43,442 nt of DNA from a virus (Duplodnaviria > Caudoviricetes): positions 1 through 43,442 of IMG/VR virus record IMGVR_UViG_3300042988_000536; one strand, 5' to 3'. Made by a program: the position numbers and the translations under genes. A model generated the notes under the pieces. It made no database searches, had not been told where the DNA came from, and saw only the letters and a list, made by a program, of their open reading frames with translations. Positions 3,879 through 43,442 of the stretch are shown one piece after another. Positions within the stretch are counted from its first letter, which is position 1; every line of letters starts with the position of its first letter.

Positions 3879-4132
3879 CTGACCTGACAGAGATCGAGAA
3901 GCCTCTGGGGCTTCTGTCCAACGCGGAAAGGCAGATGCTCACCTCCCTGCCTTGGAGGGATATTGAGGTCTATGGCATGTCTGGCTGGCAGACGCTCATG
4001 GGTCCGCCGATCTGGGTGGAGACCGTCACCTACCGGGCGAAGCGCATGCCGCGCCGGTACTGGCTGGTCGGGGATCGTGTGGCCTATGAGCCTGTCGAGG
4101 GCGCAATCGAGGTGATCGAGGTGACGAAATGA
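3875..4132 (+). CDS. Hypothetical protein
   Basis: GAGGAGG RBS; GTG start; C-terminus similar to next ORF. Confidence 0.65.
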   Translation: MTDLTEIEKPLGLLSNAERQMLTSLPWRDIEVYGMSGWQTLMGPPIWVETVTYRAKRMPRRYWLVGDRVAYEPVEGAIEVIEVTK

Positions 4133-5585: not shown

Positions 5586-5861
5586 ATGAAGTACGTGATC
5601 CGCAGCATGTCGACGACCGACGCGCCGAACTGCGTCCCCTACCACTGCTTCCTCGCGTGGCCGGAGCACCGCAACTGGGCGTGGTGGACCGCGTCCGAGG
5701 CCAGCGCGATGCGGTTTGGCAGCATCGAGGAGGCCGAGGAGGAGTGGGATCGCCTGAACCTCAGCAGCCGCGAGGGCAGCAGGAGCGACATCGCGCCCCT
5801 GCATCACCCCACGCCTGTCTGGAAGGAAACCTTCCATCGGCCGAAAGTATCTACATCCTGA
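5586..5861 (+). CDS. Hypothetical protein
   Basis: GGAG RBS. Confidence 0.6.
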   Translation: MKYVIRSMSTTDAPNCVPYHCFLAWPEHRNWAWWTASEASAMRFGSIEEAEEEWDRLNLSSREGSRSDIAPLHHPTPVWKETFHRPKVSTS

Positions 5862-11617: not shown

Positions 11618-13948
11618 ATGCCCCTCGTACCCGGCCTGAACCCCGCCGTCCGACTTGAGGATGATCCTGAAAACGCCGCCATCAGCCCGCTGGACGTGAC
11701 GGTCGAAGACGCCGGTGATGAGCCTGACATCCCTGAGTTCGATCAGGACGGCGCGGTGCTCCGCATCGACCATGGGGATGGGTCCATCACCGTCAGCCTA
11801 GACGGAAAGCCGATCTCGGAAGCCGAAGAGGAGGGCGATAAGGGCTGGTTCGCCAACCTCGTCGACGAGATCGATGACGATGAGCTTGGCCGGATCGCGG
11901 ATGATCTCCTCCGTGGCGTCGACGATGACCTGATGTCGCGCAAGGAGTGGATCGAGGACCGTGCGCAGGGCGTGAAACTTCTGGGCCTGAAGATCGAAGC
12001 CCCCGGCCTGACCGGATCGGCCGACGGCGCGCCCGTGGAGGGGATGTCCAAGGTTCGCCACCCTCTGCTTCAGGAGGCGGTCCTGCGCTTCCAAGCGAAC
12101 GCCCGGTCGGAAATGCTGCCGACAGACGGGCCGGTCAAGATCAGGGACGACGGCTTCGGCGCGACGTTCGACAAGGATCAGCTTGCGGATGGGTTCGAGA
12201 AGGACTTCAACCACTATCTGACCTCGACCGCGACGGAGTACTACCCCGACACTGACCGCATGTTCCTGATGCTCGGTTTCGGTGGATCGGCCTTCAAGAA
12301 GGTCTACTTCTGCCCCCTGCGGAACCGGCCGGTGTCCGAGAGCGTCGATGCCGAAGACCTGATCGTCAACAACTCCGCGACCGATCTGCGGAACGCCAAG
12401 CGCGTCACGCATCGTGTCTACATGAAGCCGTCGACCGTGAAGCGCCTGCAAATCCTCGGCGTCTATCGCGACGTCGAACTGGCAACTCCGCACGCTCCGT
12501 CACCGGACAGCGTGCAGGAGGCCAAGGCCGCCCAGCAGGGCGTTTCGACCCAGTCCATGAACCCCGATGATCGGGATCGCGAGCTCTACGAGGTCTACTG
12601 CGAACTGGACGTGAAGGGGTTCGAGCACAAGCACAAGGGCAAGCCGTCCGGCCTCGAAATCCCCTACCGGGTCACCATCGACGTCTCGTCCCGCGAAATC
12701 TTGAGCATCGTACGGAACTACGACGAGGAGACGAAGGAGCTTCCGGAGGCGCGCACGACCTTCGTCAAGTACACCTTCGTGCCGGGCTTCGGCTTCTACG
12801 ACATCGGCCTGCTGCACATCCTCGGCAACACCACGAACGCCGTCACGGCCGCGTGGCGGGAGCTTCTGGACGCGGGGATGTACGCCAACTTCCCCGGCTT
12901 CCTGATCAGCGACAGCGGGTCGCGGCAGAACACCAACGTGTTCCGCATCCCGCCCGGCGGCGCGTCTCAGGTGAAGACCGGAGGCTTGCCGATCAATCAG
13001 GCGGTCATGCCGCTTCCCTACAAGGAGCCGTCGCAGGCTCTCATGGCGCTGACCGAGAACATCGCGGCCACGGGCATGCGCGTGGGCGGTACGTCCGAGC
13101 TTCAGGTGGGCGAGGGCAGGCCCGACGCGCCGGTCGGCACCACACTGGCCATGATCGAGCAGGCCACGAAAATCCTGAACAGCGTCCACAAGCGGATGCA
13201 CGCGGCGCAGGCCGAGGAGTTCCGGCTGCTGCGCGAGTGCTTCAAGGAGCACCCGGAGAGCTTCTGGGAGCGGAACCGTCGCCCGACGGTGCAGTGGAAC
13301 CCCGATCTGCTGATGCGCGCGCTGGAGGATGTCGAGCTCGTCCCGCAGGCCGACCCGAACACGTCCAGCCACGCGCAGCGCGTGATGAAGATCATGGCCC
13401 TGAAACAGCTGCAGGCTGCAAACCCCGGACTGTACGATGAGGTCGCCATCGACACGGCGGCGCTGCGCGCCATCGGCTGGTCCAACCCGGAGCAGTTCTT
13501 CAAGCCGGAGGCCGCGCGCAACCAGCCGCCGCCGGAGATGCTGAAGGGCATCGAGGAGATCAAGATCGCCCATCAGGAGGCTGATGCGAAGACCATGACG
13601 GCGCAGGCCGCCATGCTCAAGGCGCAGCAGCCGAACGCCCCGGCCGCCGGGCCGCAGGGTCCGCAAGGTCCGCACCCCGTCGAACTGCAGGCCAAGCTGC
13701 TGTCCGAGCAGAACAAGGCCAAGCAGCTGGACATGTCCTTCCAGCGGGACCAGATGAACGACCAGAACCGCGATCTGGACCGGGAGAAAGACCTCCGACT
13801 GGAGCAGATGCGGATGGATCGGGACCAGATGAACGACGCGGTCAGGATGCAGCATGAGATGGACATGCAGGATCGTGACCATCATTCTGACATCGTGAAG
13901 CTGGCCATGCAGGTTCAGGCTCAGAAGAAGCGTGAAGGGGCGAAGTGA
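11618..13948 (+). CDS. Portal protein (P22-like, long C-terminal coiled coil)
   Basis: 776 aa downstream of terL; HPLLQEAVLRFQA, GSAFKKVYF, PGFGFYDIGL, TTLAMIEQ; Q/M-rich barrel-like tail. Confidence 0.9.
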   Translation: MPLVPGLNPAVRLEDDPENAAISPLDVTVEDAGDEPDIPEFDQDGAVLRIDHGDGSITVSLDGKPISEAEEEGDKGWFANLVDEIDDDELGRIADDLLRGVDDDLMSRKEWIEDRAQGVKLLGLKIEAPGLTGSADGAPVEGMSKVRHPLLQEAVLRFQANARSEMLPTDGPVKIRDDGFGATFDKDQLADGFEKDFNHYLTSTATEYYPDTDRMFLMLGFGGSAFKKVYFCPLRNRPVSESVDAEDLIVNNSATDLRNAKRVTHRVYMKPSTVKRLQILGVYRDVELATPHAPSPDSVQEAKAAQQGVSTQSMNPDDRDRELYEVYCELDVKGFEHKHKGKPSGLEIPYRVTIDVSSREILSIVRNYDEETKELPEARTTFVKYTFVPGFGFYDIGLLHILGNTTNAVTAAWRELLDAGMYANFPGFLISDSGSRQNTNVFRIPPGGASQVKTGGLPINQAVMPLPYKEPSQALMALTENIAATGMRVGGTSELQVGEGRPDAPVGTTLAMIEQATKILNSVHKRMHAAQAEEFRLLRECFKEHPESFWERNRRPTVQWNPDLLMRALEDVELVPQADPNTSSHAQRVMKIMALKQLQAANPGLYDEVAIDTAALRAIGWSNPEQFFKPEAARNQPPPEMLKGIEEIKIAHQEADAKTMTAQAAMLKAQQPNAPAAGPQGPQGPHPVELQAKLLSEQNKAKQLDMSFQRDQMNDQNRDLDREKDLRLEQMRMDRDQMNDAVRMQHEMDMQDRDHHSDIVKLAMQVQAQKKREGAK

Positions 13949-16900
13949 TGGACGAAAAAGCGATCCGGGCCGCGAAGCTCACGCTGGGCGGAATGCTCGA
14001 AAAGCGGCGAGCCTCTGAGGCCAAGGATCGCGCGGGCGGCCAGATCGCCCCGTCCAAGTACCTGCCCAACGTCCCCCGTCAGGCGCATGCCTACGGCGGC
14101 TACGTCCCGCAGGCTGGCCTGCCGACCCCACGACTGGCGGTGGCTCAGCCCCTCTCGGCACCGTCCGCTCCCAGCGCCGCCCAGACGCTCGCGGCAATCG
14201 CGTCACTGGGCGAGACCGCCCAAGGTCTCTTCGGCGATAAGGAGGCCAAGCCTGCAGCCGATCCGAGCGCGGGTCACCACGCTGGCGACGGTCACGATCA
14301 CGGATCGCCCAGCGCCGACCGTGGCGGCATGTCCGAGGCGGCGCTCTCCGCGTGGGGGAGGCTGACCGACGCCTATGGCCAGCCCCTGACGGTCACCTCG
14401 GCCTACCGCGATCCCAAGCGGAACGAGCAGGTCGGCGGCGCGAACAACAGCCAGCACATGCACGGCAACGCTTACGACGTCGACGTGTCGCATTTGTCTT
14501 ATGAGGACCGCATCGCCCTCGCCGATCAGGCTTGGGCGGCGGGCTTCCGTGGCATCGGCTTCTACGACAATTCCATGCACTTCGACGTCGCCGACCCGCG
14601 CGCGTGGGGGCCGTCGTACAGCAGTGACAGCATCCCTGACTGGGCCGCCGACTGGACGGCTCAGCGCTATGGGTACGCCGACGGCGGCGAGGTGACCGAT
14701 CTGGGGCAGGTCCGGCAACAGAAACAGCTGGAGGGCTTTCACGGCAGCCTGATGGGTGACATCGAGCAGCGTGTGAGCCACGCCATGGAGGCGCACCAGA
14801 AGGCCGTCGATGCTGGCGTGTTCGATGGGTATGAGCTTGGCGACGTCCTGCAGGGCAGTGCGCACCCCATGCGGATCACCGGCAGGTTCATGCGACTGTG
14901 GAAGCCCACGCCCATGACCCTGCAGGGCTTCGACCGGATGGGTGCCAAGCCCACCATCATCGAGCACGAGGGCAAGCAATACATTCCGATGCTGAGATAC
15001 GAGACCGGCGTCGAAGATCAGGACGGCTTTCAGCGCGGCGATGCGTACCTCGATGGCATCAAGGCCGCTGGCTACCAGAAGATGGGTGGCCTGCGCGCCG
15101 TGAAGGCTGACGGCGGATCGGTGGGGATCGGCGGCATCGAGGCGTACCACGGCAGCCCCCATGACTTCGACCGGTTCGACATCGGCAGGATCGGCACCGG
15201 AGAGGGCGCGGCCGCTTTCGGTCACGGCCTGTACTTCGCTGGCGACGAGAACATCGCGCGGTACTATCGAGACCGGATCAACCTGAACCAGAACAAGTTC
15301 GACATCGTGGATCGCCAGACCGGCAAGCCGATCCCTGAGGACGCGCCCGGATACCCCAAGGTCAAGGACTTCATGAACGCATATGCCTACGACCTGAAGG
15401 CGGGCGACATCGCCCACAAGAAGGGGTGGTGGGCTGCGCAAATTCCGCACACTGAGCGCCAGATGAAGGAGTATCAGGACTACGCCGCCTCGACCGGAAA
15501 TCCTGACATGTTCAAGGACGAGATCGAGCAGATGAGGGCCGACCTTGCCCATTATAAGGCCGCGCCCGCTCTGGTGGACCGCGTCAAGGCGGTCCCGCGT
15601 GGCCACATGTACAAGGTCAATCTGGGCGTCGGTGAGCACGAACTGCTGGACTGGGACAAGAAGCTGGGAGAACAGCACCCAGAGGTTCAGAGGAAGCTGC
15701 GCGACGTCCTGAAGCCGACCGACGATGCAGACTGGGCGAACTGGCTGAACTCCGGTGTCCCGCGCACCTATCGCGTCATGGGCTGGCCTGATGCGGCATC
15801 CAAGGAACTGTACGAGGCTGGCATCAAGGGTATCCGCTACCTCGATGCAAATTCTCGCGGCTCCGGAAGAAACAGCTATAACTACGTCATGTTCCACCAC
15901 GATCCGGTGTCGGTTGTGAAGAAATACGCCTACGGCGGATCGGTCGATGGCGGCGCTGTCCCGCAGAAGACCGTGAAGGCTTACAAGCTGTTCCGCACCA
16001 AGGGTGACGGCAATCTGTACCCGCTGTTCGTCAACGCCGACAAACCTGTCCCCATTGGAGAGTGGCTTGAGGCCGAAGAGGGGCCGCAAGGCAAGGCGCA
16101 GGGCAAGGTCAAGTCCAAGCTCGGCGATCTCGCATACCGCCCCGGCTGGCACGCTGGCGATTTGCCCGTCGCAACCCATATCGGTGGCAAGTCCGACCCC
16201 AGCCTGAAGAAGCCCGACTACCGGCCGGACAACCACGTCTGGGCCGAGGTCGAGATGGCGGCTGACAAGGACTGGCAGTCGGTGGCTGACAGACGTGGCA
16301 AAGGCGCAAAGGCCCACATCACCGACCAAGTGCCGCTGGGTGGGTTCTATCGGTACAAGACCAACCCGAACATGACCGGGAACTGGCTGATTGGGGGCAA
16401 CATGAAGGTCAACCGCGTGCTGTCCGACGATGAGGTCAAAGCCATCAACGACGCCGCCGGCACGGCCGACCTGCCGCGCCTGCCGCGCGGCGCGTTTGCA
16501 GCTGGCGGCGCGGCCATGTTCGAGGGCATCCACGAAGACCTGCAGGACGAACAGGGCAACCCACTGGAACTCTGGCACGGCACGCCGGAGCCGCATGAGT
16601 TCGAGGCGTTCGACGACAAGAAGCTGGGCTCAGCGCGAGATTACGGCTTCTACGGGCGCGGCCACTACCTGACGCCGGACGCCGAAGCCGCATCGGAGTA
16701 CGCTGGCTCCCACTCGGAAGAGGGTACCTTGATGGGTCCGCTGCATGCCGCCCTGAAGAACCCGTACATCTGGGACACGTCCAGCGAAAACGCTGCGCAC
16801 CGCACCCTCAGAGACCTGCAATCCATGGGGGTCATGAAGGGCCAGTCGAAGCTGGAAAGCTGGGACAACCTGCAGCGCCACCATATCGATCCGTTCATGC

Positions 16901-17118
16901 AGGAGATGCGTCGGCGCGGTCACGACGGTGTCGTCGTTCGTACGCAGGACTATGGCGGCGACCGACCGCACCGCGTGTCCGAGGTGGTGGTGTTCAAGCC
17001 CACGGCGATCAAGCACGCCGAGGCGGAGGTCTTCGACCCGACAGACCCGCGCATCCGCCGGTCGACGGGTGGTGCGGCGTACGATGCGGCTATGGCGGCG
17101 ATCCGGAGGAACAAATGA
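13945..17118 (+). CDS. Multi-module virion-cargo/polyvalent protein A: peptidase M15, unknown, ART-like, unknown, ART-like
   Basis: SAYR...SQHMHGNAYDV...MHFD (M15); AYHGSPHDFDRF...GHGLYFA and LWHGTP...GRGHYLT...HDGVV...EVVVF (ART-PolyVal-like); modules separated by xAxGG motifs. Confidence 0.8.
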   Translation: MMDEKAIRAAKLTLGGMLEKRRASEAKDRAGGQIAPSKYLPNVPRQAHAYGGYVPQAGLPTPRLAVAQPLSAPSAPSAAQTLAAIASLGETAQGLFGDKEAKPAADPSAGHHAGDGHDHGSPSADRGGMSEAALSAWGRLTDAYGQPLTVTSAYRDPKRNEQVGGANNSQHMHGNAYDVDVSHLSYEDRIALADQAWAAGFRGIGFYDNSMHFDVADPRAWGPSYSSDSIPDWAADWTAQRYGYADGGEVTDLGQVRQQKQLEGFHGSLMGDIEQRVSHAMEAHQKAVDAGVFDGYELGDVLQGSAHPMRITGRFMRLWKPTPMTLQGFDRMGAKPTIIEHEGKQYIPMLRYETGVEDQDGFQRGDAYLDGIKAAGYQKMGGLRAVKADGGSVGIGGIEAYHGSPHDFDRFDIGRIGTGEGAAAFGHGLYFAGDENIARYYRDRINLNQNKFDIVDRQTGKPIPEDAPGYPKVKDFMNAYAYDLKAGDIAHKKGWWAAQIPHTERQMKEYQDYAASTGNPDMFKDEIEQMRADLAHYKAAPALVDRVKAVPRGHMYKVNLGVGEHELLDWDKKLGEQHPEVQRKLRDVLKPTDDADWANWLNSGVPRTYRVMGWPDAASKELYEAGIKGIRYLDANSRGSGRNSYNYVMFHHDPVSVVKKYAYGGSVDGGAVPQKTVKAYKLFRTKGDGNLYPLFVNADKPVPIGEWLEAEEGPQGKAQGKVKSKLGDLAYRPGWHAGDLPVATHIGGKSDPSLKKPDYRPDNHVWAEVEMAADKDWQSVADRRGKGAKAHITDQVPLGGFYRYKTNPNMTGNWLIGGNMKVNRVLSDDEVKAINDAAGTADLPRLPRGAFAAGGAAMFEGIHEDLQDEQGNPLELWHGTPEPHEFEAFDDKKLGSARDYGFYGRGHYLTPDAEAASEYAGSHSEEGTLMGPLHAALKNPYIWDTSSENAAHRTLRDLQSMGVMKGQSKLESWDNLQRHHIDPFMQEMRRRGHDGVVVRTQDYGGDRPHRVSEVVVFKPTAIKHAEAEVFDPTDPRIRRSTGGAAYDAAMAAIRRNK

Positions 17119-19922
17119 ACCCGAAGACTGGTCTCTATTCCAAGGCGGCCGAGATCATCCGGTCCCTGCCGCAGGAGCGCGGCACTGCCGAGCAGATGAT
17201 CGCGGCAGCGAGAAAGATGGGCGTCAAGGACACCGAGCTCCAGAACGCCGGAGTTCTGCCGACCGGGAAGACCACGAGGGAGGAGCTTGCAGCGTTCTTT
17301 GACAGCAAGGTTCCGAAGGTCAGGGTTGACCAGTACGGCGAGAACCCAAGCTACCTGTCGCGAGACGAGAGCCAACGTCGCATCGCCCTGCAGAACCGGG
17401 TCTACAAAAACGACCCCCTATCCGATGAGGAGAAGGGCGACCTGAAGCGGCTGACGTATCGGTCCACATCCAGCCCCAGCGTCATCGAGGATGCTGAATA
17501 TGAGGCTCCGGCCGCGACCCGGTTTGAGAACTACCAGACGCGCGGCGGTGACAATTACCGCGAGCGCCTGCTGAAGTACGAGCGGCCTCCCCACCCGGCG
17601 CTGGCGGTCGACAGGCAGATCAAGTCCCTGATGCGCCAGATCGACTATGAGAGCCCGATCTACGGCAACGACCCGTCTCACCCAAAAATGCAGGAGCACT
17701 ACCAGAAGCTGTCCGACCTGCAGAACCAGATGGACAAGATCGTCGAGCAGCACGGGCCGCCCGCCGGATCGGGTCGCAGGTACCAGTCCTCTCACTGGGA
17801 CGAGCACCCGGATGTCCTCGCCCACATCCGCCTGAAGGATCGCGTTGTTGGACCGGCGAGCAGCTGGGAAAGCGCGAAGGAATGGGTTGTGCCGGTGGTC
17901 CAGAAGATCGCCGAACACATGGGTGCAGCCTCGGCCGAGCTTGGCTCCGGTGCTGCATCGTACGCTGTCAAGAACGGCCTGATCAGCCCAGAAGAGGCCG
18001 CTACGCTCAGCAAGATCAAGGGCTGGCGAAACGAGTACAGCGACAAGCCCGGCCTCGAAAAGCGCCTCCTGCACGTCGAGGAGGTCCAGTCCGACTGGGC
18101 GCAGGAGGGCCGCGACAAGGGGTTCAACACGGGCCAGAAGACACAGGAGTACCGCGACTACATCCAAGGGCTGAAACAGCGGTACCGGCAGAAGCTCAGC
18201 TGGATGGGTGACGACGCCGCTATCGACAAGCGCATGGACGACACCCTTTTGTCGGAAATGGCAATCTCGCTCGGAGAGAACGAGAAGCGACTGGAGCTCT
18301 CCCGCGCGCAGAACAACGAGATGACCGCGCCGCCGACCGGCCCGTACGTCCAGAACACGCAGCACTGGACCGATCTGGCCCTGAAGAACGTCCTGCGCGA
18401 GGCAGCGCTGGGCAACTATGACGGGATCGTCTTCACCCCCGGTCAGGCGCAGGCTGACCGGTATGGCCTGGAGAAGCAGGTGGATAGCATCTCGTACCAC
18501 CCAGCGTCACGCAAGCTCACAGCCTTCAAGGACAACAAGCCAATCATCGCCAAGCCGGACGTCAGCCCGGAGGATGTTCGCGGCCTGATCGGGAAAGACC
18601 TGTCCGAACGCCTTCTGCACCCGGACAACGCCACCGATCTGGGCGGCGGCGACATGTTCCACAGCCTGACAGGTGACGACCTGAAGATGGGCGGCGAGGG
18701 CATGAAGGGCTATTACGACAACATTCTGCCCAAAAGCGTCATGCGACTGGCGCAGCAGCACGATCCCAGCGTCAAGCCGGGCGAGCCCGTCGACATTGGT
18801 GAGGGGTATCAGGGCTTCCACCTGCCGATGACGGACCAACTGAAGCAAAGCATCACCGACAAGGGCTTTCCCGCCTTCAAGCGGGGCGGTCGTGTCGGCT
18901 ATGCACAAGGAGGAACCCCAGATGACCAAAATGCCGGAGCATATCTTGCAGCACCAGCCGCGCAGGGAGCAATTCCAGACGCAGGACGAGTACGAGGAGG
19001 CTCTGGCCTTCTTCAAACACAGGACGAGGCACCTCTTGAAGGTCTCCCAGCGTCCGCCCGCATCCCGCTCACAGGGCAAGTGATCCAAGCTGGTCCTGAC
19101 CCACGCATCCGCGCTGTGGCCCGGTCCTACATGGCCAGCGCAGGCATGCCTTACAATCCGCCGACCAAGTACGCAAAGGTCGATCCGGCGCGGGCAAAGC
19201 GCATTGCTGCAGCCTACGACGAGATGGAGGATAACCCTGAACACCCGCTGACGCGCGCCTCGTATGCCGAAATGATCAAGGAGACGTTGGCGCAATACGA
19301 GGCGGCAAAAGCGGCTGGCTTCAAGGCGGAGTTCTGGCACCCCCGGAAGCAAAAAGACCCGTACGAAGCATCTCCTAGACTTGCTGTAGAAGATGTTCGC
19401 AACAATAACCATATGTGGGTCTATCCTACCTATGCGGGATATGGCAGCGGCGACCCAATCTCGGAAGAAGATGCCCGGCGCAATCCGATGCTGCAGCTGA
19501 CGGGAGAGAATTGGAACGGCATCCCGGTGACCGTTAACGACATATTCCGTGCTGTTCACGACTATTTCGGGCATGCAAAGGAGGGTGTCGGCTTCCGCCA
19601 CGATGGAGAGGAAAACGCATGGCGGTCACACGCCTCCATGTACTCCCCGCTGGCCCGGATGGCCATGACCAGCGAGACCCGTGGCCAAAACAGCTGGCTT
19701 AATTTCGGCCCGCATGGTGAGAAAAACCGCACCGCCCGCACCGAAGACACGGAGTTTGCCCCTCAAAAGGTCGGCATCCTGCCCCACTGGGTCCACCATG
19801 AGGGTGCGGAAGACTTCATGCTGCCAAACGACATTTCCGGCATGCTGGATGCTAGAGCCAAGCACAGTGTCGACATCGACAAAGCGCTGTCTCTTACGCG
19901 CCGCTTCACCGGCGGCTGGTGA
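17115..19922 (+). CDS. Multi-module virion-cargo protein B: EEVQSDW-type module plus HDxxGH zincin-like module
   Basis: GLYS..., SHW...LAHIR, LHVEEVQSDW, GMKGYYD; then FKRGG/YAQGG; then RAVHDYFGH...GEENAW. Confidence 0.8.
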   Translation: MNPKTGLYSKAAEIIRSLPQERGTAEQMIAAARKMGVKDTELQNAGVLPTGKTTREELAAFFDSKVPKVRVDQYGENPSYLSRDESQRRIALQNRVYKNDPLSDEEKGDLKRLTYRSTSSPSVIEDAEYEAPAATRFENYQTRGGDNYRERLLKYERPPHPALAVDRQIKSLMRQIDYESPIYGNDPSHPKMQEHYQKLSDLQNQMDKIVEQHGPPAGSGRRYQSSHWDEHPDVLAHIRLKDRVVGPASSWESAKEWVVPVVQKIAEHMGAASAELGSGAASYAVKNGLISPEEAATLSKIKGWRNEYSDKPGLEKRLLHVEEVQSDWAQEGRDKGFNTGQKTQEYRDYIQGLKQRYRQKLSWMGDDAAIDKRMDDTLLSEMAISLGENEKRLELSRAQNNEMTAPPTGPYVQNTQHWTDLALKNVLREAALGNYDGIVFTPGQAQADRYGLEKQVDSISYHPASRKLTAFKDNKPIIAKPDVSPEDVRGLIGKDLSERLLHPDNATDLGGGDMFHSLTGDDLKMGGEGMKGYYDNILPKSVMRLAQQHDPSVKPGEPVDIGEGYQGFHLPMTDQLKQSITDKGFPAFKRGGRVGYAQGGTPDDQNAGAYLAAPAAQGAIPDAGRVRGGSGLLQTQDEAPLEGLPASARIPLTGQVIQAGPDPRIRAVARSYMASAGMPYNPPTKYAKVDPARAKRIAAAYDEMEDNPEHPLTRASYAEMIKETLAQYEAAKAAGFKAEFWHPRKQKDPYEASPRLAVEDVRNNNHMWVYPTYAGYGSGDPISEEDARRNPMLQLTGENWNGIPVTVNDIFRAVHDYFGHAKEGVGFRHDGEENAWRSHASMYSPLARMAMTSETRGQNSWLNFGPHGEKNRTARTEDTEFAPQKVGILPHWVHHEGAEDFMLPNDISGMLDARAKHSVDIDKALSLTRRFTGGW
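18922..19083 (+). CDS. Nested out-of-frame 53-aa protein inside cargo protein B
   Basis: AAGGAGG at 18907-18913, 8 nt before ATG; +1 frame; helical-looking PRREQFQTQDEYEEALAFFKHR while the host frame reads as linker. Confidence 0.55.
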   Translation: MTKMPEHILQHQPRREQFQTQDEYEEALAFFKHRTRHLLKVSQRPPASRSQGK

Positions 19923-19961
19923 CCTGATATGCTCCGCCGCACCGAGTGAAAGGGGATAGGC

Positions 19962-22673
19962 ATGGCCGACACCGTCAAGAAGGCTCTCGATCTGGTTTCG
20001 GGATACCAAGACCCGGCCCACCCGAAGATGAAGGGGTGGGACTGGCGTCCCCTCGATCAGGTGCGGGATGACCTCGGCGGCCTTCCGGAAATCCCCAGTC
20101 ACGTCGAAAAGTTCGGCTCGTTCATGGATGAGACCGCGCGCCGGGCTGCAACCACCGGCCTGACGCCGCGCGACCTGATCAAGGCATATGTGATCACGCG
20201 CGCGTCCATTCAGCGCCGGGCGCAGACCGCCGACAGGGTGCGATCCGCTGGACTGCAGCTTCCTCCGGGCGCGCAGGGCATGATCCGGCCGGAAGGCGCG
20301 ATGGGAGAGTGGCTCCACAGCCCGATGGGGCAGCGATACCTCGATCAGGCGGAGCGCGGGAAGGTCGACGAGGAGGCTGTGGCGCACGCGCAGAGCGTGA
20401 TGAAGCCGTTCGGCCTGAACGCAGAGACCGACGCGCTGCCGTGGGCGGTCATGCACCTCGGCCCGCGACACAAAGAGGTCTCCGACATGGTCGGAAGAGC
20501 CCTGACCGGACGCTCCAGCCCGGAAGAGTGGCGAAATTTTGCGAAAGACCTGCGCGGGATCGGCACCGCGAAGGCCGGTTTTGTCGCATCCATGCTCGGC
20601 CGGGGCGATCAGCCCACTCTGGACGCCCGTCAGGTGATCCTTCAGACTGGAAGGCCGACCGCAGACGCCAAAAGTCCGATGAAAAGGGCCGGTTTTGCCG
20701 CCGTGGACCGTCTTGCGGCCCGTCAGGCGGCCCTGAACCCCAAAATGGACCCCGATCTGGAGCCCTTCCGGCAGCACCTGACCCACCACGCGATCTGGGA
20801 CAAGGCCGGGGACGAGGTTACGACCCATGACGACGTGGTCAGTGCCATGCGGCATGCCAAGGACGGCGGCCGGATCGGCTATGCGGACGGCGGATCGGTC
20901 GGCGAGCACCCTCTGGCCCGTCTTCTCTCACAGTTGGGCCTGCCGAACGCCGACATCGAGCATCCTGAGGTGCAGAAGGCGGTGGAGCGCATCAACTCTC
21001 CCCTTTCCGACGACCCTGAGAGGGTCCAGAAGGCGCTGAAGATCGCTTCGTCCCTCAAGACCAAGGTCGCGGGCGAGACCGGAACCGGAAGCTACTACAA
21101 CGTGAAGCAGCCTGTGGCCCCGGTCGACGTGAAATCCCAAATTGAGGACATCCCCGGCGTCAAGCCGCTTGAGCGCAACCCGATGGACTGGGAGCAGGTC
21201 TACCAGAAGATCAAGGGTGGCACCTTGATCAACGTCGGCGGGGACCGGTCCAACCTTGGACGCTTGACCCACGTCAATGGGAAGAAGCTGAACTGGCCGG
21301 TCGACCTGCACGCTGGTCCCAAGTACATGCTGGAGCCGAACCCCGGCGCGGTATGGGCGAACAGCGCGGCGCACACGACAGCCTTCAACAAGAAGATCAA
21401 GGAAGCCGCCAAGAAAGGCCCGGTCTACGGCATCTACAGCCCCATGGGGCCGCAGGCCGTGGATAGCTCGCACAACATGTTCGACGCGGTCATGGCACAG
21501 ATCGACAAGGGGTCAATCTCGAAAGAGGATGCCCGCGACTTCGATGACGCCCTGCGCACCGGCCTGCACATGGAGAAGAAGGATCGCGCGAACGGCGCGG
21601 TCGCCATGGAGAAGTGGCCGGGCATCCTGAACCCAAAGGAGGCTTCCGAGTTCGCCAAGAGCCTGCCGGGCAAGCACCGCGCGGGCGTCGTCAACATGAT
21701 GGACAAGAGCTACTGGCGCGACCGTGGTTTCCCGCATGTCGGCATGACCCGCGTGGCGATCACCGATCCGGACGTCCGAGATGTTCCGGGCAACATGCTG
21801 GGTCACCGCATCGTTGAGTTCGACCCTGACGCACACCGGGCAGAGGAGAGAGCATTCAGGCACTCCACCTACACCGACGCCTCCGCCGGAAAGTACGTTG
21901 CTGACGTGCCTCTCCTGCAGCGTCAGTACGTCATGCCTGACGTGACGGCGAGGCTGCTGCAGAAGCCCACGAAGGCCAGAGAGGTCGTTCACCCCTATTC
22001 CGAGGACGCCCTCGGCCGGTCAACTGCGCGCAAGATGTTCGAGGAGCAAAAGCAGGCACAGCCGGTCGACGAGCGCTGGATCGAGAGCGTCGGTCGCGGC
22101 GCTGAGCGCCAGAAGCGCTATGGCTTCATGGATGGCGGCGCGGTCGTCGCGCAACCCACCGATGCCCAGAAGAAGGCTGGCAACTACCGCAAGCACCATG
22201 TGAGCTTTCAGGGTCTCCCGGTGACCATCGAGACCGCGAAGGGGCAGACCCGATCTGGCGTGGACGACAAGGGCCAGAAATGGTCGGTCAGGCTGCCGTA
22301 CGACTATGGCTACATCAAGCGCACAGAGGGCGCGGACGGAGACCACGTCGACGTCTGCATCGGGCCGGATCACGAGAGCGACCACGTCTTCATCATCGAC
22401 CAGCACGATCATCGTACGGGACAGTTCGACGAGCACAAAGTCATGCTGGGATACCGCACCCGCGAGGATGCCACCCGCGCCTATCAGTCCGGCTTCTCGG
22501 ACGGCAAAGGTCCGGATCGGCAGCGCGCGGTGGCCCGCATGTCGATGAAGGAGTTCAAGCACTGGTTGAAGACGTGTGACACCACGAAGCCCGTACGCGG
22601 GCAGGGTCACATCGACCGTGCAATGGCCCTGACTTCGCGCTATAGTGCCAACCACGACCGGGACGCCGGGTAA
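19962..22673 (+). CDS. Multi-module virion-cargo protein C: HhH glycosylase-like, unknown, inorganic pyrophosphatase-like
   Basis: LRGIGTAKAGF...PTLDARQV (HhH plus Asp); PTDAQKKAGNYRK...YGYIKRTEGADGDHVDV...FDEHKVMLG (polyvalent-protein InPase). Confidence 0.8.
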   Translation: MADTVKKALDLVSGYQDPAHPKMKGWDWRPLDQVRDDLGGLPEIPSHVEKFGSFMDETARRAATTGLTPRDLIKAYVITRASIQRRAQTADRVRSAGLQLPPGAQGMIRPEGAMGEWLHSPMGQRYLDQAERGKVDEEAVAHAQSVMKPFGLNAETDALPWAVMHLGPRHKEVSDMVGRALTGRSSPEEWRNFAKDLRGIGTAKAGFVASMLGRGDQPTLDARQVILQTGRPTADAKSPMKRAGFAAVDRLAARQAALNPKMDPDLEPFRQHLTHHAIWDKAGDEVTTHDDVVSAMRHAKDGGRIGYADGGSVGEHPLARLLSQLGLPNADIEHPEVQKAVERINSPLSDDPERVQKALKIASSLKTKVAGETGTGSYYNVKQPVAPVDVKSQIEDIPGVKPLERNPMDWEQVYQKIKGGTLINVGGDRSNLGRLTHVNGKKLNWPVDLHAGPKYMLEPNPGAVWANSAAHTTAFNKKIKEAAKKGPVYGIYSPMGPQAVDSSHNMFDAVMAQIDKGSISKEDARDFDDALRTGLHMEKKDRANGAVAMEKWPGILNPKEASEFAKSLPGKHRAGVVNMMDKSYWRDRGFPHVGMTRVAITDPDVRDVPGNMLGHRIVEFDPDAHRAEERAFRHSTYTDASAGKYVADVPLLQRQYVMPDVTARLLQKPTKAREVVHPYSEDALGRSTARKMFEEQKQAQPVDERWIESVGRGAERQKRYGFMDGGAVVAQPTDAQKKAGNYRKHHVSFQGLPVTIETAKGQTRSGVDDKGQKWSVRLPYDYGYIKRTEGADGDHVDVCIGPDHESDHVFIIDQHDHRTGQFDEHKVMLGYRTREDATRAYQSGFSDGKGPDRQRAVARMSMKEFKHWLKTCDTTKPVRGQGHIDRAMALTSRYSANHDRDAG

Positions 22674-22691
22674 CCCTCCGAGGAGATCGAA

Positions 22692-23810
22692 ATGGACGCC
22701 AAAAGCCTGCGCGAGGCCATGAAGAGCAAGGCAAAGCGCCTTGCTGGTGCCTCGTCCGAGAAAGTCGACAGCTCTGACTTCACCCCCGCCGAGAGCTTGA
22801 ACACCGAGGTCAAGACCGGCATGCGCCCGATCTCGCGCCGGGCATTCAAGACTGGCGGCAAGGTCGAGGGCGAGGACAATGCGCCGCGCGCCGACCGCAA
22901 GCCCCGCATGAATGGCGGCAAGATCGGGCTGGCCAACACGGACCAGAAGGCGGCGAACGAAGAGCGCGACGGAAAGAAGCACGTCGGCGGCTTCAAAAAG
23001 GGCGGCGTCCCCCACAAGGCTGCTGGCGGCATGACCTCGTCTCCGCGCCCGATGAAGCGCCCGGACGATCTGATGGCGCAGGAAAAGCTGGACAGCGCCG
23101 CGCGCACCACCGAGAGCCCGTCGTCTCAGGTCCGCAGGCCGCTTTCCCGGCCCTCCGATGAGGAGATGAAGGCCCAGCAGATGCTGAACAGCGCGGCGCG
23201 CTCCGGCGATGGTTACAAGAAGGGTGGCCGCACCGCCAAGAAGGTCGGTGGCGCGACCGGCGGCTCCGACAGCGCGCCCGTCTCCACCGCCGGAAACGAC
23301 ACGGGCGGCCGCGAGGCCAAGAAGCGTGGCGGCGAGGTCGAGAAGCACGAGAAGGGCTGCGTCTGCAAGGCATGCGGCGGCGGCGTCAGTGACCGCATGG
23401 CGCGCAAGAGCGGTGGCCGCACCGGGAAGGGCAAGACCAACATCAACATCATCATCTCGCCCCACCACGATGGCGACATGGGCAACATGGGCAAGATGGG
23501 CGGCGGCCAGCCGCCGGCACCGCCCGCGATGATGCCGAAGCCCCCGATGCCTGCGCCCGCCGCGCCTGCACCGATGCCGCACCCCGGTGCGCTACCGCCC
23601 GGCCTCGGCGCGGCACTGGCTGGCGCGGCCGGGGCTCCGATGCCCGGACCCGGCCCGATGCCTCCGCATCCCGGCGGCGCGCCCATGCCCCCCATGCCCA
23701 TGGCGCGCAAGAGCGGCGGCAAGGTCTACCCGAAGATGCATTTTGGTGCGGGATCGGGTGAAGGACGCCTTGAAAAGAAAGAGAAGTACGGCAAGAATGC
23801 AGAGGCCTGA
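22692..23810 (+). CDS. Basic, low-complexity protein with about 10 xKxGG motifs (putative internal head protein)
   Basis: FKTGG, RMNGG, FKKGG, KAAGG, YKKGG, KKVGG, KKRGG, KACGG, RKSGG x2; Pro/Met-rich tail; GAGGAG RBS. Confidence 0.75.
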   Translation: MDAKSLREAMKSKAKRLAGASSEKVDSSDFTPAESLNTEVKTGMRPISRRAFKTGGKVEGEDNAPRADRKPRMNGGKIGLANTDQKAANEERDGKKHVGGFKKGGVPHKAAGGMTSSPRPMKRPDDLMAQEKLDSAARTTESPSSQVRRPLSRPSDEEMKAQQMLNSAARSGDGYKKGGRTAKKVGGATGGSDSAPVSTAGNDTGGREAKKRGGEVEKHEKGCVCKACGGGVSDRMARKSGGRTGKGKTNINIIISPHHDGDMGNMGKMGGGQPPAPPAMMPKPPMPAPAAPAPMPHPGALPPGLGAALAGAAGAPMPGPGPMPPHPGGAPMPPMPMARKSGGKVYPKMHFGAGSGEGRLEKKEKYGKNAEA

Positions 23811-39676: not shown

Positions 39677-40570
39677 ATGGCTGAGGACGTTATCGAGACT
39701 GCTCTGCGCGCGGCGCGGGGCGGCAAGAAGAAGACCAAGACGCACCGGGGGCCGATCCACTCGACCGTCGCCGGTCGCACGGACCACCTGCCGATGCACG
39801 TCGCCTCTGGCTCCTACGTCATCCCCGCAGACATCATCTCCGCGATGGGCGAGGGGAACTCCATGGCTGGCTTCAAGGTCGCGAAGTCAATCTTCTCCAT
39901 CCCCGGACCCTATGGTCAGGGGGACGGCCTGCCGTACGGCGGCGGGGAGATGCCTTACGACCAGCCGTCGCCTAGGAAAAGAGCGAGCGGCGGCAGCACC
40001 CCGTCTGGCGGGAACCCTAAGGCCAGCGCCGCCATAGCCGCTGGAAACCAGCAGGTGGCCGCCAACAGGGCGGCCTCGGCCATGTACGCGCAGCAGGCCA
40101 ATGCGCGCGACGGGAGCCCCATTCCGTCGCACCTGCGCGGGTACGGCGGGGGGCAGGGCGGAGGCTCCGGGCCGTCGGTGCCGAGAGGCGGCACGGGCAG
40201 TTTTGGCCTACCCAATCCGGCTGGTGGCAGCATCTCCAGCGTCTTTGGTGTCCGTGGTCCTGCAGACTTCATCGACGGGGGCGGCCTCGGCGCATCTGGC
40301 GACAAGTTTCACGGCGGCCTGATCTCAGGTGCGATGAACCTTCTGGGAGTGACGCCCTACGCCCGATCCACCGGCGGCCGGGCTGAGGATCATGATGCTG
40401 TCCCTATCGTCGCGGCGGGCGGTGAGTACGTCATAGCGCCGGATGAGGTCGCTCATATTGGTGGCGGATCGCTCGATGACGGCCACAAAATCCTTGATGC
40501 CTTCGTGAAAAAGATGCGAAAAAAGACCATCAGAACCCTGCAATCACTGCCGGGGCCAAAGAAGGATTAG
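39677..40570 (+). CDS. Protein with duplicated D-x-[LV]-P...G-[SE]-YVI domain and xxxGG motifs
   Basis: GRTDHLPMHVASGSYVIPADII and HDAVPIVAAGGEYVIAPDEV; RASGG, RSTGG. Confidence 0.75.
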   Translation: MAEDVIETALRAARGGKKKTKTHRGPIHSTVAGRTDHLPMHVASGSYVIPADIISAMGEGNSMAGFKVAKSIFSIPGPYGQGDGLPYGGGEMPYDQPSPRKRASGGSTPSGGNPKASAAIAAGNQQVAANRAASAMYAQQANARDGSPIPSHLRGYGGGQGGGSGPSVPRGGTGSFGLPNPAGGSISSVFGVRGPADFIDGGGLGASGDKFHGGLISGAMNLLGVTPYARSTGGRAEDHDAVPIVAAGGEYVIAPDEVAHIGGGSLDDGHKILDAFVKKMRKKTIRTLQSLPGPKKD

Positions 40571-40574
40571 ACTG

Positions 40575-41069
40575 ATGGATGACGTGGTTGTTCGCATCGC
40601 TGTGGAGGAAGACTTCAACGGCCTCATGGACTTGTGTCTGTCCGCATGCGGCGAAAACGCCATGACAAAGCCCGACGTCGACAAGCTGGCCGTCGCGGTC
40701 TGGGGTGCTCTGATTAGGAAGACCGGCATCTGTGGCGTCATCGGCCACCTCGGTCAAAAACTGGAGGGAGGGGTGCTTCTGTCCATTGGGGAACTGTGGT
40801 ACAGCAAGGAACTGATCCTTGAGGAGAAGGCGATCTTCGTGGAACCCCAGTACCGCTCAGCGAAAGGTGGCAGGGCTCGCAAGCTGGCCGAGTTCGCGAA
40901 GGCCACTGCTGACAACCTGCAAATCCCGCTTGCTATCGGGGTTCTCTCGACAAATCGTACGGAAGCAAAAATTCGTCTCTATGAGCGTGTATTCGGCGCG
41001 CCAGCTGGTGTATATTTCCTCTACGGTGCAAAAACTGGCCTTTCTGAAGGCGCAGACGGAGGCTCCTGA
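40575..41069 (+). CDS. GNAT-family acetyltransferase-like protein
   Basis: VRIAVEEDF, IFVEPQYRS, RLYERVFG. Confidence 0.7.
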   Translation: MDDVVVRIAVEEDFNGLMDLCLSACGENAMTKPDVDKLAVAVWGALIRKTGICGVIGHLGQKLEGGVLLSIGELWYSKELILEEKAIFVEPQYRSAKGGRARKLAEFAKATADNLQIPLAIGVLSTNRTEAKIRLYERVFGAPAGVYFLYGAKTGLSEGADGGS

Positions 41070-43442
41070 TGGGCGGCAAAACTTCGACGACGACACAGCA
41101 GGTCCAAATCCCCAAGGAGGTGATGGAGCGCTACAATGCTGTGAACAAGCGCGCCGAGGGTGTCGCGACAACGCCGTTCCAGACCTACTCGACTGATCCG
41201 TCGGCGTTCGTCGCGCCGATCACTCAGCAGCAGCAGTCCGGCATCGACGCCATCAATCAGACCGCTGGCGTCTACCAGCCGTACCTTGACAAGGCCGCGC
41301 TGACCTTTGGGGAAGGCCTGAAGAGCGCTCAGCCCGGCGCGCTCAACGTCAATCAGTACATGAACCCCTATCAGCAGCAGGTCGTCGATGCGACCATGCG
41401 GCAGATGATGCAGGCGAACGAGCAGGCGCAGTCCGGCGCTCTCGGCACCGCGATCCAGTCCGGGGCTTTCGGCGGGGACCGCGCTGGCATCGCCGCAGCG
41501 AACCTTGCCAACCAGCAGGGGCTCGCGATGGGCTCCACGCTGGCTGGCCTCAACTCCGAGAACTACCAGCAGGCGATGGCGACCGCCCAGCAGCAGCAGG
41601 GACTGGCGCTGGGGGCAACGCAGGCCGATCTGGAGCGCATGATGTCCGGCGGGCAGTTCTATGCCGGTCTCGGTCAGGCCGCGCAGGGCATGGGCCTGCA
41701 GGGTGCGGAGGCCATGCTCAACGCAGGCACGCTGGGCCAGCAGACCGAGCAGGCCGGAAAGACCGCCCTGTACAACCAGTTCATGCAGCAGCAGGCGTAC
41801 CCGTTCCAAGTCGCCCAGTTCCTCGCGAACATCGCGATGGGTACCGGCGCTCTGTCCGGCTCCACGACAACCACGACCCAGCCCGCGCCGTTCTTCTCGG
41901 ATCGCCGCCTGAAGGAAAACATCCGCAGGATCGGCCAGACGGACGATGGCCTGCCGATCTACAAGTACCAGTACAAGGGCGAAGACCAGACGCATATCGG
42001 CTTCATGGCCGACGAGGTGGAGAAGAAAAAGCCGGAGGCGGTTGGCCTGCACCCGACCGGGTACAAGACTGTCGACTATGACCGCGCGACGAAGGCTGGA
42101 GGCGGCGGCATCGCCGGGCCGTACGGATCGACCGTTGGCTCTCAGCCCGGCCTCTCAAGCTACGTCCCTGAAGCGTACCTCCCTGTGGGCGAACTGATGG
42201 TCGCCGATGGGCAGATGATCGACACCACAAATCAGTCCTTGGCGGGGCAGGCTCAAGCGGCCGCCAGCTTCGGGGACAGCCTCTCCACCCTCTATGATCA
42301 GTATGGATCGGTGAAGAAAAAGGTCGACGAGTGGCGTCAGCGTCAGCGCGATCAAGCCGACGCAACGCCCGGAGCCCCCTCCTATCGCGGCGGCCTGCGC
42401 GGCGGCTATGCGTACGGAGGCGAGATTGAGGACCGTGCAGAATATCTGACGCCGGGCCTCGTCGGGAACCAGAACCCCGTCGATAAGAAGACCTACCTCT
42501 CGGACACGCTGGAGAGCCAAGGGAAGGCCGACAAGCCCCGACTGGAAACCGCCGGAGGCGCTGGAGGTTCCGGTTCCAGCCCGGCGTCCGGACTTGGCAG
42601 CCTCCTGACCGGGGTCTCCTCGATCCTCCCCTTCCTCGGCTTCAAGGATGGAGGCCGGGCGGGTTATGCCGCCGGGGGAGCGCCCGATGAGCGCGAGCTT
42701 GAGGCTGGCCTTCGCGCAGCCCTGATCAACCAGATGGGCGGCGTGTACAAGGCACCCCCTGCGGCGCAAGCCCCGGCACCGTCCTCCGAGATCGCTCCGG
42801 AGGGTGGACTTCGTGGTGCGGCGATCCTTGCGGCGAACGCAGAGCAAAACATGCCTCAAGCATCGCGCGAGGAGTTCAATCGTACGGAGCAGGCCGCCCC
42901 CACCGCGACCCCGCAGCAGGCCCCGACTGGTCTCCCGATGACATCCGGAGCCCCGATTGGTACCGCAGGTCTCGCTGCGGCGATGCCTCCCGTTCCCGAC
43001 AACATGCCGCCGATGGAAACATCCGCTCGCCCGCAGCCCAGACCTGCGGGCCTCGCCGCAGCTGGCGCTCCTACTGCGGTAGACCTTTCGGCCGCCGGTA
43101 TCGGCGTCGACAAGCCTGTCGCCGCATCGGTCAATGCTTCAGGCATGGACCCGCGCGACTTCTACAGGAGCAACATCCTTCGTCAGGAGAGCGGGCATCG
43201 TCAGTTCGATGAGAACGGGAAGCCGCTGACCTCGTCGGCTGGCGCTGTCGGCATCGGTCAGGTCATGGAAGGCACCGGACCTGAGGCGGCCGCACTCGCC
43301 GGACTTGACTGGGACCGCGAGCGCTGGATGTACGACGCCGACTACAACGCGGCCATCGGCGAGGCGTACTTCCTCGAACAGTACCGCCGCTTTGGCAGCC
43401 TCGACAAAGCCGCCGCAGCATACAATGCTGGCCCCGGCGCTC
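41069..43442 (+). CDS. DNA-ejection/internal virion protein with internal S74 chaperone domain and lytic transglycosylase domain (3' truncated)
   Basis: Absent from the ORF track (open to window end). MGGKTSTTTQ..., YMNPYQ, GAFGGDR; FSDRRLKENI...GFMADEVE...VDY (S74); RQESG...GAVGIGQVM...AAYNAGPG (SLT). Confidence 0.85.
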   Translation, partial: MGGKTSTTTQQVQIPKEVMERYNAVNKRAEGVATTPFQTYSTDPSAFVAPITQQQQSGIDAINQTAGVYQPYLDKAALTFGEGLKSAQPGALNVNQYMNPYQQQVVDATMRQMMQANEQAQSGALGTAIQSGAFGGDRAGIAAANLANQQGLAMGSTLAGLNSENYQQAMATAQQQQGLALGATQADLERMMSGGQFYAGLGQAAQGMGLQGAEAMLNAGTLGQQTEQAGKTALYNQFMQQQAYPFQVAQFLANIAMGTGALSGSTTTTTQPAPFFSDRRLKENIRRIGQTDDGLPIYKYQYKGEDQTHIGFMADEVEKKKPEAVGLHPTGYKTVDYDRATKAGGGGIAGPYGSTVGSQPGLSSYVPEAYLPVGELMVADGQMIDTTNQSLAGQAQAAASFGDSLSTLYDQYGSVKKKVDEWRQRQRDQADATPGAPSYRGGLRGGYAYGGEIEDRAEYLTPGLVGNQNPVDKKTYLSDTLESQGKADKPRLETAGGAGGSGSSPASGLGSLLTGVSSILPFLGFKDGGRAGYAAGGAPDERELEAGLRAALINQMGGVYKAPPAAQAPAPSSEIAPEGGLRGAAILAANAEQNMPQASREEFNRTEQAAPTATPQQAPTGLPMTSGAPIGTAGLAAAMPPVPDNMPPMETSARPQPRPAGLAAAGAPTAVDLSAAGIGVDKPVAASVNASGMDPRDFYRSNILRQESGHRQFDENGKPLTSSAGAVGIGQVMEGTGPEAAALAGLDWDRERWMYDADYNAAIGEAYFLEQYRRFGSLDKAAAAYNAGPGA

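Follow-up and report, generated by a model that had tools for sequence, protein, structure and literature searches.

In the tailed-phage record IMGVR_UViG_3300042988_000536 (Duplodnaviria; Caudoviricetes), which was analyzed over its whole length of 43,442 nucleotides (hereafter the window), we found that the gene for a 935-aa multi-module protein of the phage polyvalent type (17115..19922, + strand) carries in its +1 frame a second gene, which encodes a protein of 53 amino acids (18922..19083, +). Evolutionary tests on homologous sequences indicate that this nested open reading frame (ORF) is a real gene, and a comparison of loci indicates that it is linked to the module that follows it in the host gene, here called the HDxxGH module, and not to the domain upstream. 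On balance, and drawing on a predicted complex of the two proteins, we favor the view that the small protein is a cognate inhibitor of this module.

The nested gene is preceded by a GG cassette motif of the host frame, FKRGGRVGYAQGG (18876..18914, +), whose last Gly-Gly is written GGA GGA and provides the Shine-Dalgarno (SD) sequence AAGGAGG of the nested gene (18907..18913, +). An 8-nt spacer leads to the ATG at 18922 and the TGA ends at 19083; SD, start and stop thus all lie within the open host ORF 17115-19922, the architecture of an embedded gene. These positions confirm those of a first-pass annotation of the window, which had also noticed that the other copies of the cassette motif mostly use GGC. 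This codon indeed makes up 37 of the 52 Gly codons, and the GGA-GGA pair of the SD site is the only one among 26 copies, counted as pattern matches in six window genes. Downstream of the motif, the host frame reads through a stop-free, Gly/Ala/Pro/Arg-rich linker whose sequence drifts (18915..19049, +), and the nested ORF extends beyond it to cover the 11 initial codons of the module, which begins with LEGLP at 19050; this overlap had been noted as well. In 15 long window genes scanned, no other SD-led nested ORF had an SD of 7 nt, and three weaker candidates were found besides. Another +1 ORF of the window, at 20827-21039 (70 aa), follows a GAGGT SD where a GG motif marks a border in the polyvalent gene that comes next; it is Ser/Arg-rich and shadow-like, none of the nested ORFs in the fetched loci is homologous to it, and it probably arose by chance.

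An AlphaFold2 model of the 53-aa protein (mean predicted local distance difference test score, pLDDT, 77.5) consists of a short helix (residues 6-9) and a long helix (residues 21-41). The conserved core spans P13-R34 (18958..19023, +) with the pattern PxRExF...EYEEAxxFFxHR, and the tail is unconserved. The window peptide matched no family in Pfam, PHROG or NCBIfam and had no usable match in the ESM Atlas, and 38 diverse members of its family gave three weak matches in PHROG. No RNA holder was listed, an outcome that has no bearing on expression.

We compared the two reading frames over a gap-free core of 28 codons in 21 distinct homologues (L040 was excluded for ambiguous bases and one duplicate was merged). 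The ratio of nonsynonymous to synonymous polymorphism (pN/pS) was 0.36 in the nested frame, with an identity of 0.68, and 1.29 in the host frame, with an identity of 0.47; the +2 frame contained nine stops in these sequences. The module served as a control and gave the reverse picture, with a pN/pS of 0.07 in the host frame and 3.55 in the +1 frame (9 sequences). Heterozygosity at the nested wobble position was 0.36 versus 0.21 (p = 0.004, the sequences being related and thus non-independent). Because the +1 frame stayed open with a mean probability of 0.91 when the host frame was recoded, an open +1 frame carries no weight by itself. The host frame was open in all 21 cores, where about 0.41 would be expected by chance for each (again for related sequences), and in 49 of 50 distinct contexts. 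Since the host frame is open beyond chance and the +1 frame is conserved, both frames are maintained. The dual coding proposed in the first-pass annotation is thus supported by comparative sequence data, while its suggestion that the main frame looks like a frameshifted linker is contradicted. The 14 viral loci found via the peptide likewise encode it in +1, and neither frame is interrupted in them. The sole exception among the 50 contexts is L032, where a host-frame stop just 3' of the nested gene (around 4022-4024) splits off the module and leaves the nested ORF intact. Nested ORFs with an SD and an ATG numbered 95 in +1 and 11 in +2, a count that has no null and was not used as evidence.

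An SD of at least 4 nt precedes the start in 45 of the 50 distinct contexts, compared with 413 of 4368 background +1 ATGs (9.5%), a count that allowed several candidate starts per locus without correction. Of these 45 starts, 41 are ATG and four are GTG or TTG. Homologues that have stops in this frame or lack the SD and start had been named as what would speak against the nested gene, and their SD and start are thus largely present. The SD lies within a host Gly-Gly in 17 of the 45 contexts, and in the other 28 it is written by host codons for NGE, LGE, KGE, ARS and more. The positions of SD and start shift among lineages, and stop positions vary widely among homologues. Because differing host codons write the SD at shifting positions, it is selected in its own right. 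The claim that the SD is the GG motif itself therefore holds for the window and these 17 contexts and fails as a general rule; the GG motif looks like one convenient spelling of the SD, not its defining feature.

A stand-alone copy of the nested gene, complete with SD, ATG and stop, was found in three loci (L155:1370-1522, L156:1613-1765 and L157:1625-1777). There, two stops interrupt what was once the host frame within the gene, and similarity ends just past the gene stop. No module was found within the 0.9-2.5 kb downstream, and the neighbors resemble what we take to be a tail-fiber end and a DUF3293-like gene. The persistence of this orphan with a broken host frame shows the small frame to be the unit under selection. 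The copy fits an orphan inhibitor and an independent gene alike.

To define the peptide family, 1.84 billion representatives were searched with a profile, which returned 171 clusters. Almost all of the best 150 matches are small proteins that share the motif PxRExF...E.[YF]EEA..[FW]..R; some members are fused to other small domains, and in none of the 150 does the peptide form the N-terminal part of a protein of module size. In 57 of them we detected the +1 shadow of the module start, [EQ]G[LF]P, compared with 27.5 in shuffles (maximum 42 in 1000).

The family was then placed on genomic loci with a profile seeded from the peptides of these loci and rebuilt from 149 representatives, P0227 (894 aa, repeats) being left out. 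In the window and 136 loci, together 137 redundant sequences, all 78 family matches lay in +1 at the module start and none elsewhere. When loci were collected via the peptide, the module followed directly in 69 of 73 matches, or 47 of 49 distinct ones, the exceptions being a truncated contig and a set of three nearly identical ones; of the metagenome loci, 22 of 39 had been dropped as short matches without support from the family profile (one partial, 13.9 bits). When they were collected via the module, a search that does not select for the peptide, a family match was present in 64 of 123 loci (redundant contigs, four without upstream DNA). The 150 residues upstream fell into 18 clusters among 43 loci, and carriers were scattered over the module tree, with 14 label changes in a quick tree. 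Locus searches with two divergent family members returned no contig; the genomic setting of the W-type subfamily was therefore judged from the shadow test and a few module-first loci (L056, L102, L106 and L132). In the cultured phage Pag-Yong1 the family member is nested and unannotated, and MinM2 and Pra-JY27 gave the same match statistics (their records were not opened); the annotated records MW202675 and OL906435 do not list the nested gene. The co-occurrence check proposed in the first-pass annotation thus gave a positive result, and its idea that the partner travels with the module is supported in the direction from peptide to module; the association is not obligatory, since only 46 of 95 distinct modules carry the peptide.

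The HDxxGH module (19050..19922, +) comprises 290 residues, is mostly helical and was modeled by AlphaFold2 with a pLDDT of 94.4, confidently from residue 1. Its relatives include 1446 proteins of near equal length and 1747 longer ones, which carry fused ART-PolyVal, M15 peptidase, GNAT, zeta or InPase families. The HDYFGH motif (19557..19574, +) places the invariant H170-D171-x-x-G-H175 on one helix, and is followed by G181-F182-R183 and an invariant E187 on the next helix (183-195). This layout leads us to infer a zincin-like metalloenzyme from sequence and predicted helices. Of the features of zincin metallopeptidases, the Glu on the following helix is present, and HEXXH or HEXXXH with its catalytic Glu is not: D171, invariant in 100 aligned members, stands at the position of the general-base Glu. 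None of 100 module members matched Pfam MPTase-PolyVal, sequence searches of the PDB found no match to the module, and Foldseek returned none at E <= 0.001. In a VIA fold search the best Z was 3.5, and the best zincin row, abylysin (4jiu), came at rank 9 with Z 2.6, a root-mean-square deviation of 4.6 and 93 aligned residues, which is within noise; other fold relatives were uncharacterised viral proteins only. A reading of HDxxGH as an HD domain (dGTPase-like) was unsupported in the fold searches. Bxz1 gp104 (L140:2530-3786) of Cluster C mycobacteriophages is a distant stand-alone relative of the module, with 199 Mycobacterium phage records. Pseudomonas phage LKA1 gp7 (ORF7, phrog_7806, L143:3662-4228), an early gene of a T7-like phage, gave a weak fold match (E 0.26), and its motif N..FRA.HDLGH...EEE...DTVGQ...FPNDQ matches the module invariants by eye, with HDxxH spacing, at an hhalign probability of 3.9%; it is possibly another distant stand-alone relative.

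Modeling of the module together with peptide residues 1-45 gave a complex score of 0.91 (median of three runs), compared with 0.00 for the best of three controls. Of solved pairs, 116 of 157 reached the mark for this score, as did 2 of 215 mismatched ones; with our own alignments, these figures apply only approximately. The predicted interface is large, with 112-122 contacts; the runs agreed in at least 76% of contacts, and the partner pLDDT was at least 80. Because PDB searches gave no like structure, it is less likely that the model reproduced a known complex. Residues E25-R44 of the peptide lie at the predicted interface, and the best-placed pairs join F182 with A29, F30, H33 and E26; among them, R183 also meets E25 as well as E26, a residue that never varies in the peptide alignment, and E187 meets H33. 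On the module side, T127, G130, G132, N163, F166, R167, F182, E187, Q213, T234, A237 and Q239 of the interface are at least 95% conserved in 47 peptide-less modules. Conservation of these residues regardless of the peptide points to a functional pocket, and the model supports binding of the peptide there. The first-pass annotation had proposed a dual-coded partner (antitoxin, inhibitor or chaperone) of an effector module; the predicted complex lends weight to the partner role, the effector itself being putative.

In the mechanism that we favor, the helical peptide would bind the module pocket through the R183-E26 pair and the contacts of F182 and E187. The module, a putative zincin-like metalloenzyme, would be packed in the virion and enter the next host with it at infection. 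Translated from the module's own late mRNA, the small protein would silence the module in the producing cell, and it may be left behind or released at packaging, the module acting after delivery. As the gene is located in the linker, module and inhibitor would move as one cassette on shuffling.

Several observations weigh against an inhibitor of this kind. Conserved residues are only modestly enriched at the interface, both in peptide-less modules (15 of 39 versus 46 of 197, one of the 15 being a gap column) and in peptide-carrying ones (18 of 39 versus 72 of 197), and H170, D171 and H175 are absent from the listed contacts. Binding at this pocket would equally be expected of an activator, a cofactor or a mimic of the substrate. 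Both activity and toxicity of the module are putative, and Asp takes the place of the general-base Glu of zincins. Furthermore, of the 95 distinct modules, 36 lack the family, 11 lie near the gene start without it and two have no flank, so that it is absent from 47 of the 93 with upstream DNA; no family match was found at Octadecabacter phage BD1, Microcystis phage Mel-JY33 or Bxz1 gp104. The module is therefore tolerated without this partner, or other partners are used.

Candidates for such replacement partners exist in several loci that lack the family, where an unrelated SD-led +1 ORF takes the corresponding position before the HDxxGH module: the L107 family (L107:2334-2516, also in L109-111, L116, L117, L121 and L135), L124:2807-2980, L115:2834-2950 and L047:3912-4091. 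A second nested +1 family, with the motif PLTRE..L.L.[YF]...P....E.E.ELP, was seen next to another module. It follows one module, AEAY.RAA..RG..PR.MQSITWEA.RGL, in 10 of the 10 loci where the motif was found (L006 around 6462, L008 6339-6587, L050 6666-6854, L051-L055, L065 and L148), and PLTRE-like segments are fused ahead of the HDxxGH-linked peptide family in P0166, P0210 and P0216. More protein-like SD-led +1 linker ORFs lie by other modules at L050:4746-4910, L129:3761-3922 and 5615-5737, L033:6489-6662, L124:5552-5785, L126:1585-1812 and L131:5465-5845.

Other explanations of the nested gene were weighed against inhibition. That the small protein, once bound to the module, activates it, chaperones its assembly or acts as an adaptor for packaging has a real but minor chance of being correct: it would show the same linkage and the same complex model, and the large interface suits it, but about half of the modules do without the peptide, the interface residues are invariant irrespective of it, and the orphan copy has no module in the following 0.9-2.5 kb, although one may be present elsewhere in that genome. 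We consider it rather unlikely that an independent small phage gene, directed for example at a host target, once stood upstream of the module gene and was engulfed when the module was fused, which would make the linkage historical. The stand-alone copy in L155-157, the unrelated nested ORFs that take the same place in the L107 family, L124, L115 and L047, and the fusions of some family members to other small domains agree with such an origin. However, the linkage holds over a deep module tree and the 18 upstream contexts, and the complex model is specific relative to its controls, with R183 pairing with E26, both highly conserved.

A translational device, either a leader coupled to an internal start or a frameshift into the host frame that yields a peptide-module fusion, is brought to mind by the stop of the nested gene, which in the window overlaps a host-frame GTG (GTGA at 19080). 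Yet stop positions vary widely, an NTG-A overlap is automatic for a TGA in +1, and a restart at this GTG would remove the conserved LEGLP start; moreover, the amino acids are conserved and not the frame alone, and no module-sized protein among the best 150 matches has the peptide at its N-terminus, which makes this reading very improbable. It is scarcely credible that the ORF is a chance shadow of a conserved host-frame linker. A +1 frame is usually open by chance in such a G+C-rich context, but the host frame is the less conserved of the two, the opposite of the module control, the SD turns over yet persists, and the gene is retained even where stops interrupt the host frame.

The host gene and its surroundings are those of a polyvalent protein. 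The window is 72% complete as a phage genome and contains a terminase and a portal of the SU10 type (11618-13948), 3' of which lie three multi-module genes: a Peptidase_M15 and ART-PolyVal gene (13945-17118), the host gene (17115-19922) and an InPase gene (19962-22673), so that the host gene is flanked by two polyvalent genes. The host ORF had no match in Pfam, and its match to phrog_3170 covers the HDYFGH stretch. Short GG motifs stand between the modules, and at least 26 of them (YADGG, FKRGG and RKSGG types) were counted at module borders in six genes (window 14086-23720 and 39700-42680), where they may serve as signals for recombination, cleavage or packaging. Several disparate modules in one ORF amid virion genes are consistent with the phage polyvalent proteins described by Iyer et al. 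(2017; PMC5512222). By gene position and analogy to that work, the host protein may be packaged in the virion and injected.

The architecture itself is already known from phage lambda, where Rz1 is embedded in the +1 frame of the spanin gene Rz (PMC6139136). As with Rz/Rz1, a small +1 gene lies within a longer phage gene, its product forms a complex (here a predicted one) with the host product, and gene callers usually miss such genes. Unlike Rz1, the nested gene neither encodes a lipoprotein nor belongs to lysis; its place is a linker between modules of a multi-domain protein, its linkage is to a single shuffled module, and its product would block a pocket instead of co-assembling. A two-component spanin was considered and rejected, the 53-aa protein having no Cys and no hydrophobic signal stretch, in a context of virion polyvalent genes. 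Like the polyvalent proteins of PMC5512222, the host gene is a large multi-domain gene of the virion region with ART-PolyVal and InPase neighbors. Among the polyvalent zincin-like peptidases described there is an HEXXXH variant whose following helix bears a Glu, a layout that HDYFGH...E187 resembles; unlike these metallopeptidases (PMC5512222), the module has Asp for the catalytic Glu and no match to Pfam MPTase-PolyVal. In the part of PMC5512222 available to us, nested genes and cognate inhibitors are unmentioned, and the words "overlap" and "linker" occur 0 times. Our literature searches, which covered papers outside subscription journals, found no description of nested genes in polyvalent proteins or of the module.

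A further, functional parallel would be small partners of enzymes. In the effector-immunity pairs of polymorphic toxins and in type II toxin-antitoxin systems, a small partner is tied to an enzyme-like domain, partner families are variable and orphans occur. The present pair resembles them in its small, genetically linked partner, the predicted occlusion of a pocket, the candidate replacement families and the orphan copies, and differs in that the partner lies inside the putative effector's own gene, 5' of the domain, and in that many modules have none. Beyond the known embedded architecture, the present analysis adds the tie between module and partner, the predicted pocket-plugging complex, the orphan copy and the PLTRE family.

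It is a tentative extension, which we think possible and would not press, that polyvalent proteins in general are cassettes of an enzyme module and an out-of-frame gene for its cognate inhibitor in the adjoining linker. If this is true, the linkers would be an unannotated layer of immunity genes, orphan copies of which would have been captured by other phages, and every hidden peptide would show where the active site of its uncharacterised module lies. Already for the pair described here, the results provide a handle on a widespread uncharacterised domain and on the 171 clusters of the small-protein family. Among the enzymes of polyvalent proteins are many that could harm the cell producing them, and the available text of the founding paper (PMC5512222) does not address how that cell is protected. 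A partner of 5-6 kDa encoded in the same gene, with its contact residues named, is a proposed answer to this question, and it would likely be a built-in inhibitor of a kind that ordinary gene annotation misses.
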